Source of the DNA: Candidatus Melainabacteria bacterium 17Bon1m
GTDB taxonomy: Bacteria; Cyanobacteriota; Vampirovibrionia; Obscuribacterales; Obscuribacteraceae
Assembly (NCBI GenBank): GCA_032128875.1
Contig: JAVLKG010000001.1
Location: 544,001-608,000, forward strand
Direction of reading: 5' to 3'
DNA length: 64,000 nt
Every line of letters starts with the position of its first letter. Positions within the stretch are counted from its first letter, which is position 1. Shown piece by piece: positions 3,767 through 64,000 of the stretch. Under the pieces are notes generated by a model. The model had not been told where the DNA came from. It did not search any database and saw only the letters and a program-made list of their open reading frames with translations. Position numbers and translations under genes: made by a program.

Positions 3767-5191
3767 CTAGTCGCCTTCCGGCGTACCGAACTTTTCCAAA
3801 TTCTGCACCCGTTTCAAATCAGCAGCTGACTTTTCCGCGTTACCCATATTCTTGTAGATATCTGCGCGCGAAGTGTAATACTCTGCGACGTTGGGATTTT
3901 TCGAAATCAGCATATTGATGTCCGCGAGCGCCTCTATCCATCTGCCTTTCTTCTTGTAGAGATTTTGACGCGCGTAGATAGAATTGAGGTCGCCAGGAAA
4001 GACTTTTGTAAATTTGACGAGTTCTGCAAGCGCGTCATCGTACTTTCCTGTCTTTTGCAGCAGCAGAATGTATTTAAGCCATGTTGCCTTTGTGCTCGAA
4101 AGTTCTGTAGCGTCACCACCAGACATCATTTTGTTCCACGCAGAACGTCGAGTTGCGGCATGTGAGATGGCGTATTTTTTATCGTAATCTGGTCTTGTCA
4201 CACCGTAAGCATCAAGAGCTTTTTTGTAGTCTTGCGCTGCGGCTTCAAGGTTGCCTACCTTCTCGTAGCACTCCGCACGGCGCGCGAATGAGGTGTTGCC
4301 GCCACCTCCCATCTTTTCCAGAACATTCAAATCTTCGATCGCTTCTTTGTACCGACCTGTTTTCTTGTTTAGCTTCGCTCTTGTTGTGCGTACATAAATG
4401 TCGTCGGAATGGTGCTTTATGACTTCATCGAGATCTTTGAGAGCCCCTGAGTTGTTAAAAACCTCGCGACGAAAAAAACCGCGCTGATAGTATGGCAACG
4501 CCGTGTTTGGATACGCTTTCACAAACTGGCTGTATGCCTTTTCAGCTTGATCATATTCCAACTTCCGCAAATGAATTATGCCAGCGATGATAAGCACTGT
4601 GACGTCTTTGGGCGCCAGCTTCATTGCTTTATCTAGCTCTTCCTGCGTGCCGAGTGTCTCGTTGCGCAGCCCGCACAGGGCAAGTGCTGCATGTGCACGA
4701 CCATTCTTGTTGTTGATTGCAATCGCTTCCTGTGCAAGCTGCTCTGCTCTCACGACATAGCCTGCTAAAAATTCAACGATTGAACACGTGGAAATTACTT
4801 GCGCATCCTTCGGAGCCAGGCGCGTCGCAAGGCGAATCGAATCAATGCCTGACTTTCCTTTAGCCGCAACGATGTACATCTCGCCCATCTTGCGCAGAAA
4901 GACAACCCGATCTTTCGGATTTTCCTTAATCGCTTTTACGCACAAATCATGCGCGGCATTAAATTGAGTGTTCATAAACAGCTTGTCGATCTCAGCTTCA
5001 TACGCCGACGTTGTCATGGCGCAAGCTGGGGTGATCGATGCGATGCTAATATGTCCGGCGAATAGTGAGAACGCGAGGCTAAGCACCATCGTTCTTTCGC
5101 TGGTAATTTTGCGTATCTTGCGCACAATATTCACGGATGCCACCCGCCGCCTGATCGAATGATTAGATTCTACCCTGCGGCAGGCGTACAC
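3767..5191 (-). CDS. Tetratricopeptide-repeat protein, probably exported (true start may be downstream)
   Basis: Repeated TPR-like helices (YQRGFFR, RAECYEKVG, RADIYKNMG); signal-like segment VLSLAFSLFAG. Confidence 0.85.
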   Translation of the reverse strand: MYACRRVESNHSIRRRVASVNIVRKIRKITSERTMVLSLAFSLFAGHISIASITPACAMTTSAYEAEIDKLFMNTQFNAAHDLCVKAIKENPKDRVVFLRKMGEMYIVAAKGKSGIDSIRLATRLAPKDAQVISTCSIVEFLAGYVVRAEQLAQEAIAINNKNGRAHAALALCGLRNETLGTQEELDKAMKLAPKDVTVLIIAGIIHLRKLEYDQAEKAYSQFVKAYPNTALPYYQRGFFRREVFNNSGALKDLDEVIKHHSDDIYVRTTRAKLNKKTGRYKEAIEDLNVLEKMGGGGNTSFARRAECYEKVGNLEAAAQDYKKALDAYGVTRPDYDKKYAISHAATRRSAWNKMMSGGDATELSSTKATWLKYILLLQKTGKYDDALAELVKFTKVFPGDLNSIYARQNLYKKKGRWIEALADINMLISKNPNVAEYYTSRADIYKNMGNAEKSAADLKRVQNLEKFGTPEGD

Positions 5192-5209
5192 CCGCGTCCC
5201 TTTCGCGCA

Positions 5210-5902
5210 TTAACCTGTTCTTTCAAACCTCCGATCTACGTCCAAATCCTGCCACTTGGACTGCATATCTAGGTTGAGCAATATTTGTTGGTCTGGTGTG
5301 AGCATCTCTTTGCGAATCTGCTTGTTGTCGATGTCATTGTCGTCAAGGTCTTCGACCTGGGCTTTCTGTTTGTTGTCCGGCTTTTCGTCGAAGTCGAGTT
5401 TGTCGAGTTCTTTAACGAGTGCGCCGCTCAGAAGTCCGCCCACAATGCCCTCAAGCAGGCGTGGGAAAAAATCGTCTTTCTGTCTGTGGTGGTGACGGTG
5501 ATGTCCATGTCCGTCGTAATAGTAGTTGTCCTGCCAGCTGTCGCGGAAGAAGTTGTTCATTCCGTCGTATGGATTTCGGAAATGTTGTTGCTGGTACCTT
5601 CTGAAATCGCCCTGATCGCGGTAATCAAAGTGGTTGTGTAGTTGCTGTTTTTGATATGTTGGATGGAAACTCTGGGGATATCTGAACTGCGGCGGTGTTG
5701 GATACTGCGCGCGTGGAGTCTCGATGCGGCGCTCTTGGCGCTGGTCGCGTTCTTGGCGATGTTCGTAACGCTGCTCGTGCCGGTGTTCATGCCGGTTTTC
5801 ATGCCTATGCTCATGCCGATGTTCCTGGCGCTGCTCGTGGCGCTGTTCCTGCTTGTGATCGTGCTTTTGATTATTGCGATCTTGCTCTTTTCTTTCTGGC
5901 AT
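5210..5902 (-). CDS. Hypothetical low-complexity His/Arg/Gln-rich protein
   Basis: 230-aa ORF with HEQR/HRHE repeats and one hydrophobic segment LLEGIVGGLLSGALV. Confidence 0.6.
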   Translation of the reverse strand: MPERKEQDRNNQKHDHKQEQRHEQRQEHRHEHRHENRHEHRHEQRYEHRQERDQRQERRIETPRAQYPTPPQFRYPQSFHPTYQKQQLHNHFDYRDQGDFRRYQQQHFRNPYDGMNNFFRDSWQDNYYYDGHGHHRHHHRQKDDFFPRLLEGIVGGLLSGALVKELDKLDFDEKPDNKQKAQVEDLDDNDIDNKQIRKEMLTPDQQILLNLDMQSKWQDLDVDRRFERTG

Positions 5903-6834
5903 TTTTAACGCTCGATTAATTGATTCGTGAACATTTGGCGTAATTCTTGAGATGGTCTATGTCGCTCCGTTTGCGCCGGAAGATTGATTTGATTCGGCAT
6001 ACGCATTCGCAAGTAATTGCGGAAGGTATCTTGTAGGCGCATTGAAAGACCAAGCGACGAATTCTGATTTTGGTGTTGAGGACTTTCCTGTTTTTGGCTC
6101 TGACTCTGCTGTTTATTGTGTGAAGGGGCGGACTTTCTTGCGTATAAGCACTCAGTCATTGTTTTTTTGAACTGATACCGCATGTGATGCAGCGATCAAT
6201 GCATAACTTTCAATAGCCTTGAGCTTTTGCGCTTCTGTGAGTTGTGGTTGGGATTGGGGAGTGAGCGAGCCACAGGATGATGGTTCGTCTACAGCAAAGG
6301 AAAGCATGATCGGAGGACCATACGTCAACATAGGAAAACCTCATGTTTACTAGTTAGACGCAGACTCGAGGTCTTGCGGCTAAAGTGTGCAGGGGAAGGA
6401 AGGAGGGAAGATAGGAGGAAGGGGGCGGACTCGGAGAGAACTGTTGAATTTCAGGTGGCGGTGACAGGAAGCATTGGCTGAACTAATATCAACCGGAATC
6501 AAAAATTGTGAGTAGATCTTTGATTTGGTTGAGTCCTGTCGGCGAACTTTCCGCTCACCCGACTCAACAATCGCACTCCACTGGGGGGAACACTGTCACT
6601 TTAGGAAACGAAAGTAGCAATCGCGTAACAGCCGAAGAAATTATTCAAATCGAATTCTTGGCAGCACTCACCCTCGAAGCCTGACCCTTGAAGCCTGTCC
6701 CTGTTATTGATTTCCCGGTTTGAGGATTTGGGAGCCAGTTGCAGGAAAGATCAGGCGGCTACCGTGGAACAGTAGGGTAAGCTTATTAATATTCAAATAT
6801 GCGGGCATCGCCCGGTCAGGAGAATGGGGAGCGA

Positions 6835-7506
6835 ATGGCGAAGATCTTGGTTGTTGAGGACGATAAGGACCTGTGCAATCTCGTATCTGAATATTTTGCC
6901 GTCGCCGGTTATACGGTGGACAAAGCCTTTACCGGCTCGGACGGACGCAACTTCCTGAAGACCTATCAATACGACGTGGTTATTTTGGATTGGTCGCTAC
7001 CCGAGGTCAGCGGGATTGCTCTTTGCAGGGAGTACCGGGCTAACGGCGGCAACTGCCCAGTCATATTTTTGACCGGAAAGACAGAAATTGCTGATAAAGA
7101 AACCGGTCTGGACGCCGGCAGCGACGATTATGTGACCAAACCGTTTTCAATTCAGGAGCTGGCAGCGCGCGTGCGGGCATTGCTCAGGCGCTCACCGGTT
7201 TATCACCATAATGTCTTGAAAGTGAAAGACATTGAGCTTGATCCAAACGAGCACAAGGTCACGAAGAATGGTAAAGAGATCAAACTCTTTCCGCGCGAAT
7301 TCGCGCTGCTGGAGTTTTTCATGCGCCACCCCAACCAAGTTTTTAGTGCTGACACTTTAATCGATCGCGTATGGCAGTCCGATACGGAAGCGACTGCAAA
7401 AACGGTCAGAGTTTCACTTATGCGTCTTCGCCAGGGCTTGGAAGAGGACAAAGACAATTCGCTTATTAAGAACGTCTATGGCGTCGGATATAAACTGGAG
7501 ACATAA
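6835..7506 (+). CDS. OmpR/PhoB-family DNA-binding response regulator
   Basis: MAKILVVEDD, phosphoacceptor ILDWSLP, DDYVTKPF, winged-helix end NVYGVGYKL. Confidence 0.95.
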   Translation: MAKILVVEDDKDLCNLVSEYFAVAGYTVDKAFTGSDGRNFLKTYQYDVVILDWSLPEVSGIALCREYRANGGNCPVIFLTGKTEIADKETGLDAGSDDYVTKPFSIQELAARVRALLRRSPVYHHNVLKVKDIELDPNEHKVTKNGKEIKLFPREFALLEFFMRHPNQVFSADTLIDRVWQSDTEATAKTVRVSLMRLRQGLEEDKDNSLIKNVYGVGYKLET

Positions 7507-7636
7507 TGCCTCTCTAAAGCGTGGGATTGCCCCTGGCTTGTAGGGGGAGGCGGAATTTTTCGAATTGGTCTACGGTAAGTAGTGTTGCAGTTCTTCTCTA
7601 TCCGAAGTGCAATCATAGTAATAGCGTGCAGCTAAT

Positions 7637-60426: not shown

Positions 60427-61008
60427 GTGTCTAGCGAAACCGCCAACTCCGTCGGTCAGATTACGACGGCGAGTAAAGTTAAGCTCGTCGTTAGTGGGTC
60501 AGAACTAGAGAAGATTCACAGCCTGCCTGTGGATGAATACTTCGACTTGCTCGAAGAGGCTACTCCTGAGCAGCTTCAATTAATAATTCATTCGTTTGAG
60601 AAAGTGTCGCGCACCAAAAGTGGTGCCAGCTTGTTACAGAAAATCATTGCAGTTCCACAAGGGCGGCGTTCTCTATTTTCAATCTTAATGTGGTGGGAGT
60701 CGCGACGCCCTGTATACAACATCATTGTTGGTTTAGTCGGCTTGCCTTCTATCTTGCTGCTGTCGCTATTTGGGATGGGGCACGCCGCTGTTGTCGCGGC
60801 ATTTGTCTACGCCATCTGTGCCAACATCTGCTATTGCTTGGGGGCTCCCGCCGAAGTCGTGGCGCGCGCTTGCTACAAACAAAATGCAGAAACCTACGCT
60901 CCTGTATTGTTCACTCTCGGAACCATCTTCTCTGTTGTTTTAACCGTATTACTTGAACTTCTGGTCTTTGCCGCTCTGGTATTTGGAGCAGTCTCCGGAC
61001 GTTTCTAG
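60427..61008 (+). CDS. Hypothetical membrane protein
   Basis: WWESRRPVYN motif, ANICYCLG, three TM segments. Confidence 0.8.
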   Translation: MSSETANSVGQITTASKVKLVVSGSELEKIHSLPVDEYFDLLEEATPEQLQLIIHSFEKVSRTKSGASLLQKIIAVPQGRRSLFSILMWWESRRPVYNIIVGLVGLPSILLLSLFGMGHAAVVAAFVYAICANICYCLGAPAEVVARACYKQNAETYAPVLFTLGTIFSVVLTVLLELLVFAALVFGAVSGRF

Positions 61009-61121
61009 CAACCTGCTGCCCCAGGAAAGCTCTGAAATTGGTCAAAAGCGCTGCCTGGCCGGCCTCAGTGTGGCATAAACTGAATGCTTGGATATAATGA
61101 AAGTTGTCTGGAGGCGGTCGA

Positions 61122-61737
61122 ATGAACGCAGCAGTCAATTTTTCGGTCAATCTTATCCTGGTACTTGTTCCCGGCTATTTACTGAGTTTTACGATGTTTA
61201 GAGACACTTCAATTGCTAAATTGCCCGAGCAGGGCAGCCTTCACAAGGTTGTACTTGCCGCTGGTTGATTCTGGGGGGTTGAGGCGGCGCTTCAACGAAT
61301 CGACGGAGTCAAGCACGCGACTTCCGGTTATACAGGCGGATCAACGAAAGATCCGACCTACAAAGATGTTTGCAGTGGACGGACCGGGCATGCTGAAGCA
61401 GTCCAGGTCTTGTTCGACGCGAAAGTCGTCTCTTTCAAGGACATTATCCGCTTTTACGTGAAGCAGTTCGGACCGAGCCGGCACCAGGGCGAGGAAACTT
61501 TACGTGAAGCAGTTCGGACCGAGCCGGCACCAGGGCGAGGAAACCAGCCAGTACCGAGCGGCGATATTTTACGAGAGTGAGGAGCAAAAGAAGGAAGCGG
61601 GCGAAGTGCTTGGGGAATTTGGCTTTGATAAGGCGGATACCGAGCGTTTGCTTGAGCCTGCAGCCACTTTCTTCGCTGCCGAGGTTTATCACCAGAAATA
61701 CTATGAGAAGTCCTCCATGGGGCTTTACAGACGCTAG
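61122..61737 (+). CDS. msrA: Peptide methionine sulfoxide reductase A, selenocysteine form (GUFWG); reading frame broken by a 46-bp duplication in this sequence
   Basis: GGAGG RBS, ATG 61122; AAG-TGA(61266-61268)-FWGVE, SGYTGG, PTYKDVCSG.TGHAEAV, QYRAAIF, AEVYHQKYY. Confidence 0.85.
61267..61301 (+). promoter_or_regulatory. Bacterial SECIS-like hairpin in msrA
   Basis: Upper stem GTTGAGGC/GCTTCAAC (61278-61296), loop GGC 17 nt after the UGA; lower stem GATTC/GAATC. Confidence 0.7.
61453..61544 (+). repeat. Perfect 46-bp tandem duplication
   Basis: TTTACGTGAAGCAGTTCGGACCGAGCCGGCACCAGGGCGAGGAAAC at 61453-61498 and 61499-61544. Confidence 0.97.
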
Positions 61738-61893
61738 AATTCGGAAATTTGGCAAAGGTTGAAACCTTCGTTAAGCGGGACGGATATGCTCGCCTGTTGA
61801 TGCATGATGGATAAATCTGCAAAAACTTGTCATTTGGATTAATTTGGTAACCGATTGAGTCTTGATACCTAACGAAGGCACTCAGGCTATCGT

Positions 61894-63267
61894 TTGAAAG
61901 TAGAACTCGAGAAAATAGAGAAGTATCCAGTTCTCACGCCAACGAGCATGGAGAGCACAGAGTCTGCAGGCTTGCTCTTTGTCGGTGGCCCTGTTTGTGT
62001 CTTACTTGCCTGGTTTCTTTTCTCTGCCATGGCTAAGTACTTGATCACGTGGCAGCTTCTCTCGATTTTCGTTGTTTTTGCGCACCACGCGGCCACAAGC
62101 TCGTCCGGTATTTCTTCGTCGCTTGATCTCAAAGCCAAGGGGCTCGACATTAGAGACCCGCGCATGAATGCGATTATGCCTTGGGACTGGCTAACCAAGG
62201 TTGAAATGAGACAGCGCAATTTCAGCATAATTCCCAACTACGTCTATTTCAAATTCAAAGACAACTCTGATGTGATTATCCTCTGGGATGACGTAAAAGA
62301 GACAATGGATTCGACCACTCTGATTTCTTGCGTTCGTACTTGGGCGCCTCATGCGGAGATTGTTGGTGATGCCAAATTGACAAAGTCAGAGTCCATCGCC
62401 ACTTATACAGAGCTCTGGCTTAAGGATATGAGCCTTACGAAGACGGAGCGGCGTCTGCGTCAAGATCAGACTCTGCCCCCTCAAACTGTTCTAAGTAACA
62501 GTTATAAGGTCGAGCGAATCTTGAGCGGTGGAGGTCAGGGCACCGCTTATCTTGCCTCTGTTATGCCCGGTGCTGAAGTTCCCAACATGCCATCGCAGGT
62601 GGTGATAAAGGAATTTATCCTGCCGTCTAACGATCGTGGACTTCAGAAGGCTACAGATGGACTGGTGAAAGAAGTGTCTATTCTGAGACGTATTTCTCAC
62701 CCCAAAATAGTTCGTCTCTATGACTTCTTTATTGAAGATATGCGCGGTTATCTTGTTATCGAATTCATAGATGGTGAAACATTGCGTCAGCTCGTCGCAA
62801 GAACCGGACCATTAGACGACGCGCGTGTTGCGCAAATTGGCGTCTCACTTTGTGAGTCGCTTACTTATCTGCATGAGCTCTCACCTTCAATTATTCACGG
62901 CGATGTCACTCCAGATAATATTATGTTGGAAAAGGGTGGCGCCATAAAACTAATGGATTTTGATGCCTCTCAAGAACTTACGCGCAACAAGACCAACACT
63001 GTAGTTGGTAAGCACGCATACATGTCACCAGAGCAATTCAAGGGAATTCTCGGAAGCGAGAGCGATATCTATGCGCTCGGTTGTACGTTGAACTTTTTGC
63101 TCACGGGCGTCGACCCAGAGCCAATAAGCGAGTCTCGCCCAGTTAGTCTCAGAGAGACGATTAGCGAATCAATGAACGAGGCAGTTGCCAAAGCTACCAA
63201 ATTAAACGTTGCAGAAAGATATTCCACTCTTTCCGAATTGAGAGGCGATCTTGAGCGAATCAGATAG
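61894..63267 (+). CDS. Membrane-anchored Ser/Thr protein kinase
   Basis: GGGQGTAY, VVIKE, HGDVTPDN, DFD, YMSPEQ, SDIYALG; N-terminal TM segments. Confidence 0.93.
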   Translation: MKVELEKIEKYPVLTPTSMESTESAGLLFVGGPVCVLLAWFLFSAMAKYLITWQLLSIFVVFAHHAATSSSGISSSLDLKAKGLDIRDPRMNAIMPWDWLTKVEMRQRNFSIIPNYVYFKFKDNSDVIILWDDVKETMDSTTLISCVRTWAPHAEIVGDAKLTKSESIATYTELWLKDMSLTKTERRLRQDQTLPPQTVLSNSYKVERILSGGGQGTAYLASVMPGAEVPNMPSQVVIKEFILPSNDRGLQKATDGLVKEVSILRRISHPKIVRLYDFFIEDMRGYLVIEFIDGETLRQLVARTGPLDDARVAQIGVSLCESLTYLHELSPSIIHGDVTPDNIMLEKGGAIKLMDFDASQELTRNKTNTVVGKHAYMSPEQFKGILGSESDIYALGCTLNFLLTGVDPEPISESRPVSLRETISESMNEAVAKATKLNVAERYSTLSELRGDLERIR

Positions 63268-63283
63268 TTTGAAGAAACATACC

Positions 63284-64000
63284 GTGGCACCTCATGTTTC
63301 TCCTGAGCAAGGTGGAGCTTTTGAGATCGCTTACACGCCGGATTTCGAAACGGGCAATCGAATAGTTTTGAAATTCACCTGGCCAATTGTCTTCTTTGCC
63401 TTGGCATATGTTTACACTGCACTTATAGGACCGTTTTCATTAGTGGGATGTATTGGCGGTGGGCTTGCCTGCGTACTTGTCGCGTCTTATCTGGTGCTGC
63501 TTACTCTTCTGTTTAAGAAGTATTTCGTGCTTCGCCAATGGGGTATCACACTGCCGGCAATGTATTTAGCTGCTGCATCAGGGCGACTTAGGTGGAGTTG
63601 GACAGATTTAAATCAGGTTGTTTTTTCGAGAAGCTCAGAAGGATTTCGCAGCGCTGATCAACTGGTGCTCCGTTTTCAGCATTCTGGTTCTTCTACGCCT
63701 GTCAACATTCATATTAGGCTACGAGACATTGATCAACTGGACTTGAAAAAGTTCGTTTATGCCATAGTCACCAATGCACCACATGCGGTGTTTGAGCCGC
63801 CGCTCGATCAAGTTGGCATAGAACTTCCAACAGTGTCTGGGATTAAGCATCTCAACTTTCACAGTTTTACAACAATGTGGGATGAAGAGTTCTCCACCCG
63901 GTACTCGCCTACGTTATTTGTTCCGATGTCTCCTGGTGATGAACTTCGAAATGGTGCGATCAAGATTTCAGAGCTGGTAGCGTGTGGCGGCTCAGCTGCT
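63284..64000 (+). CDS. Second membrane-anchored Ser/Thr kinase-like gene, partial (runs off the right edge)
   Basis: Open frame to the window end; TM segments, SFTTMWDEE (compare TYTELW in the upstream kinase), ending at a Gly-loop-like VACGGSAA. Confidence 0.7.
   Translation, partial: MAPHVSPEQGGAFEIAYTPDFETGNRIVLKFTWPIVFFALAYVYTALIGPFSLVGCIGGGLACVLVASYLVLLTLLFKKYFVLRQWGITLPAMYLAAASGRLRWSWTDLNQVVFSRSSEGFRSADQLVLRFQHSGSSTPVNIHIRLRDIDQLDLKKFVYAIVTNAPHAVFEPPLDQVGIELPTVSGIKHLNFHSFTTMWDEEFSTRYSPTLFVPMSPGDELRNGAIKISELVACGGSAA

Follow-up and report, generated by a model that had tools for sequence, protein, structure and literature searches.

A 64,000-nucleotide (nt) window of the draft genome of Candidatus Melainabacteria bacterium 17Bon1m (here G000; 7.55 Mb in 35 contigs, 93% complete) contains, at positions 61122–61737, a gene for methionine sulfoxide reductase A (MsrA) with an in-frame TGA at its catalytic position. 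All coordinates given below are positions within this window. We consider it very probable that the locus represents a Candidatus Obscuribacterales clade of membrane-anchored MsrA enzymes of a selenocysteine (Sec)-only, '1-Sec' type, and that the copy in this strain was inactivated very recently by a 46-nt tandem duplication. The TGA is retained in every orthologue found among 107 genomes of the order, the genome encodes the Sec machinery, and the duplication is present in read assemblies and missing from close strains.

The msrA locus is read in two frames

In frame 0 the catalytic motif is encoded as VVLAAG-TGA-FWGVEAALQ, the TGA at 61266–61268 replacing the Cys codon of MsrA to give GUFWG (U denoting Sec), exactly where the original prediction had placed it. 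The position aligns with the catalytic Cys of E. coli MsrA. When the TGA is read as Sec, frame 0 is native up to residue 126 and then encodes 26 foreign residues before it stops, whereas the last 64 codons sit in the +1 frame, within an open reading frame (ORF) of 77 codons that begins with GTG (61504–61737). The original prediction had treated 61122–61737 as one Sec-MsrA gene. This had to be abandoned, as the duplication splits the frame, frame 0 stops at 61578–61580, and the stretch is not a single open frame under any reading of TGA. The features of the locus, all on the plus strand, are as follows.

61070–61098, plus strand: promoter-like site GTGGCA-17-TATAAT (10 of 12 matches in a consensus scan; a pattern match only)
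61110–61114, plus strand: Shine-Dalgarno sequence GGAGG, 7 nt 5′ of the ATG (read from the sequence)
61122–61199, plus strand: start ATG and uncharged hydrophobic N-terminal segment, residues 1–26, a predicted membrane-anchor helix (Kyte-Doolittle, orthologue conservation, AlphaFold2 model)
61245–61490, plus strand: N-terminal half of the MsrA (PMSR) domain in frame 0 (PF01625 profile positions 1–82, one TGA inside)
61266–61268, plus strand: TGA, read as the Sec codon at the catalytic position, GUFWG (in-frame reading, orthologue conservation)
61278–61296, plus strand: hairpin of the selenocysteine insertion sequence (SECIS) type, 8-bp stem, GGC loop (folding energy, pairing, synonymous constraint)
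61453–61498, plus strand: 46-nt tandem duplication, copy 1 (Tandem Repeats Finder; not in the six of six aligned orthologues)
61499–61544, plus strand: 46-nt tandem duplication, copy 2, cause of the +1 frameshift after codon 126 (Tandem Repeats Finder, contig depths)
61578–61580, plus strand: premature frame-0 stop TGA, after 26 out-of-frame residues (frame translation)
61528–61737, plus strand: C-terminal half of the MsrA domain in the +1 frame (PF01625 profile positions 83–151), with the original stop TAG at 61735–61737

Both halves of the domain matched PF01625 above its gathering cut-off of 23.7 bits, the N-terminal piece with 97.3 bits in a profile search and 104.8 bits by hmmscan, and the C-terminal piece with 42.8 and 46 bits, respectively. 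An intact orthologue scored 154.8 bits over profile positions 1–148. The MsrA motifs G(C/U)FWG, GYTGG, GHAE, QYR and YHQ are all encoded at the locus, as had been claimed, but QYR and YHQ lie 3′ of the frameshift, so that the description of them as intact is correct only in part. The CTGGAGGCGGTC context of the start codon recurs at the start of two orthologues.

The in-frame TGA is conserved as a selenocysteine codon

We searched 107 genomes of the same order for orthologues. Sixteen genomes held one (at least 52% identity, N-terminus covered). The original prediction had suggested comparing this codon among relatives, and all 16 holders had TGA here rather than TGC or TGT; the split into two frames occurred only in G000. 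Of the matches in these genomes that contain no stop, the best reaches 51% identity and starts only at residue 39. Among 41 related genomes, a PMSR search yielded 12 MsrA matches that were full-length, in a single frame and interrupted by exactly one TGA. Six of these have the N-terminus of the window gene, and in their DNA alignment the TGA was found in all six and the additional 46 nt in none.

Conservation is concentrated immediately after the TGA. Over UFWGVEAALQR the synonymous codon identity was 0.90–0.98 (7-codon windows, 14 sequences), compared with 0.31–0.57 elsewhere away from the TGA region, and about 30 nt 3′ of the TGA are nearly frozen at synonymous sites.

The Sec machinery is encoded in the same genome: selA (497 bits), selB (286 bits) and selD (370 bits) all scored above curated cut-offs and lacked internal stops, and a tRNA-Sec (67.5 bits, likewise above its curated cut-off) was called by ARAGORN as tRNA-SeC with anticodon tca. 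Thus neither Cys codons in close relatives nor a host devoid of Sec genes, the combination that the original prediction had associated with a pseudogene, was what we found. Matches to selA occurred in 86 of the 107 genomes, including 15 of the 16 orthologue holders. TGA terminates 10 of the window's 29 long ORFs; the codon has therefore not been reassigned across the genome, and the standard code applies.

The TGA could alternatively be a nonsense mutation, the locus then being a Cys-MsrA pseudogene with two lesions. A second lesion, the duplication, is real, and a PF01625 search found three msrA loci in all, of which the two others are intact Cys-type genes. The original prediction had alluded to two lesions without describing the second. 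A nonsense mutation is nevertheless at odds with a TGA shared by all 16 orthologue-bearing genomes, down to 52% protein identity, with frozen synonymous sites behind it and with a complete Sec machinery. The orthologue comparison refutes this alternative, which we regard as extremely improbable. In the family, the TGA is well supported by comparative sequence analysis as a Sec codon rather than a lesion, and Sec would be inserted at this position. The earlier preference for a recoded selenoenzyme over a nonsense mutant therefore stands for the gene family but not for the copy in the window, which is frameshifted and most likely inactive.

A second candidate selenoprotein is encoded elsewhere in the window genome (G000:C5:51293-52306; locus L182 294-1307, +; 338 residues). 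It has a thioredoxin fold (AhpC-TSA match), a lipoprotein-like N-terminus, the motif WSMTUHSC (UxxC) and a small hairpin 3′ of its TGA, which is kept in 12 of 12 matching rows from 11 of the 107 genomes. A second conserved TGA gene indicates that the Sec trait is in use and does not depend on msrA alone. Tight co-occurrence of this UxxC lipoprotein with Sec-MsrA was considered and rejected, as only G000, G006, G071 and G078 among the 16 MsrA holders have it.

A SECIS-type hairpin follows the TGA

Downstream of the TGA, GUUGAGGC (61278–61285) and GCUUCAAC (61289–61296) form a stem closed by the loop GGC (61286–61288). The isolated hairpin has a folding energy of −8.3 kcal/mol, and 17 nt separate the UGA from the loop. 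For bacterial SECIS (bSECIS) elements, a passage of a 2026 review (PMC13188914) gives a loop of 3–9 nt with G in its first two positions, an upper stem of 4–16 bp, a UGA-to-loop distance of 16–37 nt and a minimum free energy (MFE) of at most −7.5 kcal/mol. As the original prediction had proposed, we compared the hairpin with the bacterial model, and it agrees with all of these published constraints in its 3-nt loop starting GG, its 8-bp stem, its spacing and its energy. Across 19 distinct sequences, pairing was kept in 151 of 152 cells.

The 8-bp stem and GGC loop were thus described correctly in the original prediction, which had added a GATTC/GAATC lower stem. These two segments can pair in the window (GAUUC/GAAUC in the RNA), but the MFE fold takes another lower stem and orthologues with GACUU, GAGUU and GAAUU weaken the pairing; it was left out of the element as defined here. 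The hairpins that other Sec-MsrA clades carry at a comparable position are different ones; one planctomycete group, for example, has GCCAUCUAC/GUAGAUGGC versus GCCGUCUAC/GUAGACGGC. The hairpin of the lipoprotein-like planctomycete form shows an A-U to G-C compensatory change.

A strain-specific duplication disrupts the gene

Tandem Repeats Finder reported 2.0 copies of a 46-nt unit at 61453–61544, with a 100% match and a score of 184. The duplication was absent from all other orthologues (the six of six aligned, and the other holders among the 107 genomes). To follow it in sequencing data we used Logan contigs, which are assemblies of reads, from four runs of four studies (X2, X5, X6 and X7), compared over 60900–62000.

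The assembly graphs of X2 and X5 are interrupted at the repeat, and all pieces are identical to the window. A 60-nt junction unitig (61469–61528), which consists only of junction-crossing words (30 words of 31 nt), had a depth of 23.7 in X2 and 10.6 in X5, with flanks at 25.4 and 21.5 in X2 and at 8.5 and 8.86 in X5. The depth of the 46-nt unit itself was 49.9 (X2) and 19.7 (X5), about twice that of the flanks. In X6 and X7, one long contig each joins 61452 to 61499, so that 46 nt are missing; over the compared stretch these contigs differ from the window by one and three other letters, respectively. Strains whose contigs are one to three letters apart over this stretch therefore have an intact 570-nt gene.

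We considered whether the gene is intact in the cell and the 46 nt are an assembly or sequencing artefact. Such an error would fit the contigs of X6 and X7, from two other studies, the absence of the duplication from every orthologue and the draft state of a genome in 35 contigs. It would not explain junction words at flank depth, with the unit at about twofold depth, in two runs from two studies: an assembler error would put no junction words into the runs' own contigs. Because the duplication is present in those contigs, it is not an artefact of this assembly, and we judge that alternative very unlikely. The duplication is real and strain-specific.

The predicted product has at best 152 residues and lacks profile positions 83–153, including the QYRAAIF and AEVYHQ motifs. 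Given the frameshift, this copy most likely encodes no active enzyme here and would be a very recent loss-of-function allele. We regard such a loss, tolerated by the strain because it keeps two Cys-type msrA genes, as the most likely account. Could the 152-residue product, or a split enzyme formed together with the 77-codon ORF, retain some function? Residues 1–126 keep the anchor, the Sec, the tyrosine of GYTGG and the glutamate of GHAE, and the ORF starting at GTG 61504 encodes the rest. The first product nonetheless lacks almost half of the fold, GTG 61504 has no Shine-Dalgarno sequence in front of it and no relative has a split gene, making residual function highly improbable.

It is also conceivable that the duplication is a reversible off-state, in which the perfect repeat collapses by slipped misalignment or recombination and the population switches the selenoenzyme. 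The repeat is indeed perfect, both alleles occur among contigs one to three letters apart, and the rest of the gene is undamaged except for a strain-specific Ala17-to-Pro exchange. Against switching, no single run contains both alleles, and the depths in X2 and X5 fit a duplicated fraction of about 100%. The duplication is a single event in 16 genomes, no repeat tract predisposes the site, and the idea is speculative, drawn from the general behaviour of tandem duplications. We consider such an off-state unlikely; a loss of function remains our preferred interpretation of the duplication.

Two substitutions were noted in the same gene. C61170 makes codon 17 a Pro codon (CCC) within the membrane helix; this derived change is specific to the strain, since the residue is Ala in X6 and X7 and in five of the six orthologues aligned, and Gly in the sixth, G014. 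Codon 100 (61419–61421) encodes Ala where 12 of 12 aligned orthologues have Pro, in the 'DP' of MsrA. Since the runs without the duplication show no difference at codon 100, Ala100 is probably shared by the intact allele.

The intact form is predicted to be membrane-anchored and to lack recycling cysteines

The intact protein has 189 residues and comprises an N-terminal helix, a 15-residue linker and the MsrA domain; among the 12 aligned orthologues mean column identity was 74%. The original prediction had called the N-terminus hydrophobic, and its first 26 residues in the window are indeed hydrophobic and uncharged, with no charge before R27-D28 and a Kyte-Doolittle 19-residue maximum of 1.87. 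An uncharged N-terminal segment is present in 11 of the 12 orthologues (L137 lacks it), spanning 22–26 residues from residue 1 in ten of them and 20 residues after K2 in one, and the 19-residue maxima of the window and these 11 anchor-bearing orthologues range from 1.85 to 2.89. (R/K)D follows directly, and then the linker. An AlphaFold2 model of the closest orthologue (mean predicted local distance difference test score 78.8) places a helix at residues 3–25 and a coil at 26–40, followed by the MsrA fold.

Cleavable Sec-type signal peptides have a positive n-region, an h-region of about 7–15 residues and a small-x-small cleavage site. A classical cleavable signal peptide was rejected here, as the n-region has no K or R and the uncharged stretch of 22–26 residues runs directly into (R/K)D. 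We read the segment as a conserved, uncleaved membrane anchor on the basis of these sequence features. No K or R precedes the helix in the window and 10 of the 11 anchor-bearing orthologues. The next 15 residues carry two positive and two negative charges in the window and 10 of the 11 orthologues (+3/−2 in L123). With no charges of either sign on the N-terminal side and +2/−2 on the C-terminal side, the positive-inside rule decides neither the orientation nor the extracytoplasmic location that the original prediction had raised as a possibility. Most neighbouring Sec-MsrA groups of the order start with ordinary signal peptides or lipoboxes, and these export signals weakly favour an MsrA domain that would face outwards.

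As the original prediction had noted, the protein has no C-terminal resolving Cys. It ends about four residues past the region aligned with E. coli MsrA (PDB 1FF3), before the position of E. coli Cys198, and in all 12 orthologues the stretch past the YHQ motif is free of Cys. The only Cys in the anchored-clade protein is the invariant Cys84, in a DVC that aligns with EVC of E. coli MsrA, whose Cys we take not to be part of the catalytic cycle. Because the protein ends before the recycling cysteines, the enzyme would be of a '1-Sec' type, by analogy with the MsrA of Clostridium oremlandii, and would need an outside thiol donor for its selenenic-acid intermediate.

Evidence weighed and a proposed mechanism

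Several observations pull in the other direction. None of the eight hairpin pairs shows double-sided covariation: five are invariant, in two a single side varies without loss of pairing, and the pair that closes the loop is unpaired in one cell. The conserved peptide VEAALQ accounts for part of the hairpin conservation, the 71-nt stretch has a z score of only −2.18, with 9 of 200 shuffles folding equally well, and an Rfam scan of 60900–61900 at E ≤ 10 returned no family and no SECIS model match. In G002 (93% complete), which holds an orthologue, selA was not found. Run X2, although filed as RNA-Seq, provides no evidence of transcription: its contigs are 15–33 kb long and identical to DNA, so that it shows presence rather than transcription. 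X2 and X5 are marked as runs from which this assembly may derive and are thus not fully independent of it, and the word depths are compatible with a minority of unduplicated molecules, since the unduplicated form contributes no distinctive words.

As there is no double-sided covariation, the hairpin structure rests on conservation. It is conservation, and not folding energy, that gives the hairpin its weight as sequence evidence, and codon-level conservation is stronger evidence than pairing. With these points included, a Sec-MsrA recently lost in this strain is still the explanation that we favour.

We propose the following mechanism as the most likely one. The UGA at 61266–61268 would be decoded by SelB and tRNA-Sec with the aid of the hairpin, its loop 17 nt away. 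The intact enzyme would consist of an uncleaved anchor helix, a linker and an MsrA domain ending short of the usual recycling cysteines, and its selenenic-acid intermediate would be reduced by the outside thiol donor, in analogy to C. oremlandii MsrA. In this strain, the 46-nt duplication has shifted the frame after codon 126, which would leave at best the truncated product and a loss of function.

Distribution of Sec-MsrA

An exact-pattern scan for (A/G)-G-TGA-F-W-G-V-(E/Q) in one genome per species (GTDB representatives) returned 105 stretches, 80 of them with DNA, and the scan counts that follow refer to these 80. Translation identified 65 MsrA genes and 15 chance hits. Most matches came from Planctomycetota and from metagenome-assembled genomes (MAGs) whose labels read Candidatus Obscuribacterales or Melainabacteria. 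The anchored clade accounts for eleven; nine of these have such a label, and two are labelled only 'bacterium'. In a quick tree of 96 rows with Shimodaira-Hasegawa-like approximate likelihood ratio test (SH-aLRT) support, built without the chance hits (15) and without L073 and L112, which are truncated at contig ends, the anchored clade formed one branch of 12 rows with an SH-aLRT of 96. Sec/Cys counts on this tree were not used, since the Sec rows had been chosen by their TGA.

Sec-MsrA is common in Planctomycetota, where it takes two forms, lipoprotein-like stand-alone enzymes and MsrB-MsrA fusions (loci L072-L151). One scan match came from a MAG whose label names a filamentous cyanobacterium (Drouetiella sp., L109).

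In a sample of the phylum, 24 of 401 genomes gave a selA match, with none among the 169 genomes of one family of the same class with genomes of about 2 Mb. The gene clusters in a small number of families (7/8, 4/6, 7/8, 4/10 and 1/1 genomes).

We also searched 5.8 billion predicted proteins and examined five of the best 120 matches. Four of the five are fragments of 105–131 residues that start after the TGA, bearing out the earlier statement that standard ORF callers miss the gene. The fifth (P0002), the only full-length database protein of the anchored clade among them, has 193 residues and is recorded with Cys (GCFWR) and a three-Cys tail (SC...SC...SC). Within the order, the sequences nearest to it carry TGA without exception. 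Should P0002 prove to be a Cys form, a single clade would use either Sec or recycling cysteines.

Genomic surroundings

The window gene stands alone, flanked by a membrane protein of an unclassified family and a Ser/Thr kinase; its neighbours in the window comprise a YiaAB protein, the kinase and two proteins that match no family. The neighbourhood held no clue to a redox partner, with no thioredoxin, DsbD or CcdA gene near msrA. Synteny of the msrA region was seen only with G011, and with G002 it extends only to the downstream kinase and the next gene. The kinase ORF (61894–63267) encodes a membrane-associated Ser/Thr protein kinase of 457 residues; a paralogous ORF occupies 63251–64000, and the pair is syntenic in two related genomes.

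Significance

The main value of these results lies in annotation and comparison, as Sec-MsrA is established: passages of PMC13188914 list Sec-MsrA with a GUFWG/H motif as an accepted bacterial selenoprotein family. Against this background, an anchored, Sec-only clade free of recycling cysteines in Obscuribacterales adds a modest new variant. Ordinary gene callers do not see the gene. Passages of PMC1794560 and PMC9312934 describe the Sec trait as not detected in, or apparently lacking from, Cyanobacteria, whereas selA in 86 of 107 genomes, together with this gene, indicates that non-photosynthetic cyanobacterial relatives use Sec. Our literature searches returned no paper linking Obscuribacter to selenoproteins and, by title or abstract, nothing on Melainabacteria and selenocysteine and no description of an exported bacterial Sec-MsrA. 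The combination of Sec, an anchor and no recycling cysteines raises the question of the reductant and of the side of the membrane, and the pair of intact and duplicated alleles in strains whose contigs are one to three letters apart over the compared stretch is a natural knock-out for asking what the enzyme is for.

A broader picture can be offered tentatively, as one that is possible but on the whole doubtful. Obscuribacterales would have an unrecognised, widely kept Sec trait and a radiation of exported or anchored Sec-MsrAs, within which the clade of the window gene, as a Sec-only, membrane-tethered 1-Sec enzyme, would repair envelope methionine sulfoxide with an extracytoplasmic thiol or selenol donor. 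The duplication would then be a natural, possibly reversible, knock-out.

Comparison with known systems

The best solved relative is E. coli MsrA (PDB 1FF3, 3-Cys type), which matched residues 40–185 with E = 2.5e-28 and aligns at GCFWG, GYTGG, GHAEAV, QYR and YHQ. Unlike the protein described here, E. coli MsrA has a catalytic Cys and recycling cysteines in a C-terminal tail, which we take to be Cys198 and Cys206, and it is cytoplasmic and lacks an anchor.

A further comparison is with the MsrA of Clostridium (Alkaliphilus) oremlandii OhILAs (CoMsrA). Passages of PMC4479559 describe it as a '1-Cys type' enzyme with Sec at the catalytic site and no resolving Cys, whose Sec form is 20-fold more active than the Cys form and whose reductant is glutaredoxin rather than thioredoxin. 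A catalytic Sec and the lack of a resolving Cys are common to CoMsrA and the anchored clade. According to the same passages, CoMsrA is soluble, has 209 residues without any Cys, and carries an extra C-terminal helical domain (145–209; PMC4479559). In contrast, the anchored clade has an N-terminal membrane helix and the invariant Cys84 and lacks the extra domain. Solved CoMsrA chains matched at E of about 4e-20 only, and a Clostridium Sec-MsrA falls elsewhere in the quick tree. With no extra helical domain, an anchor present and the Clostridium enzyme elsewhere in the tree, the anchored clade is not orthologous to CoMsrA.

An operon-like row in the related genome G011 (L183, G011:C6:3000-16000, about 4686-7520, minus strand) encodes a Sec-MsrA with a signal peptide, a thioredoxin-MsrB fusion (297 residues), a lipoprotein Cys-MsrA (217 residues) and an extracytoplasmic function (ECF) sigma factor. 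A cluster of this type was not found in the window genome, which has only the three msrA loci. Judged by its gene content, the G011 row looks like an envelope methionine-sulfoxide repair module.

Envelope Msr systems include PilB of Neisseria (thioredoxin-MsrA-MsrB) and the membrane-anchored MsrAB2 of Streptococcus pneumoniae. MsrPQ is a further one, treated together with a reference to PilB in a passage of PMC6316033. PilB, MsrAB2 and MsrPQ use Cys (molybdenum in MsrP) and carry or adjoin a reductase module of their own, whereas the window gene stands alone. What they would have in common with the Sec-MsrAs, the G011 cluster included, is Msr activity at or outside the membrane.

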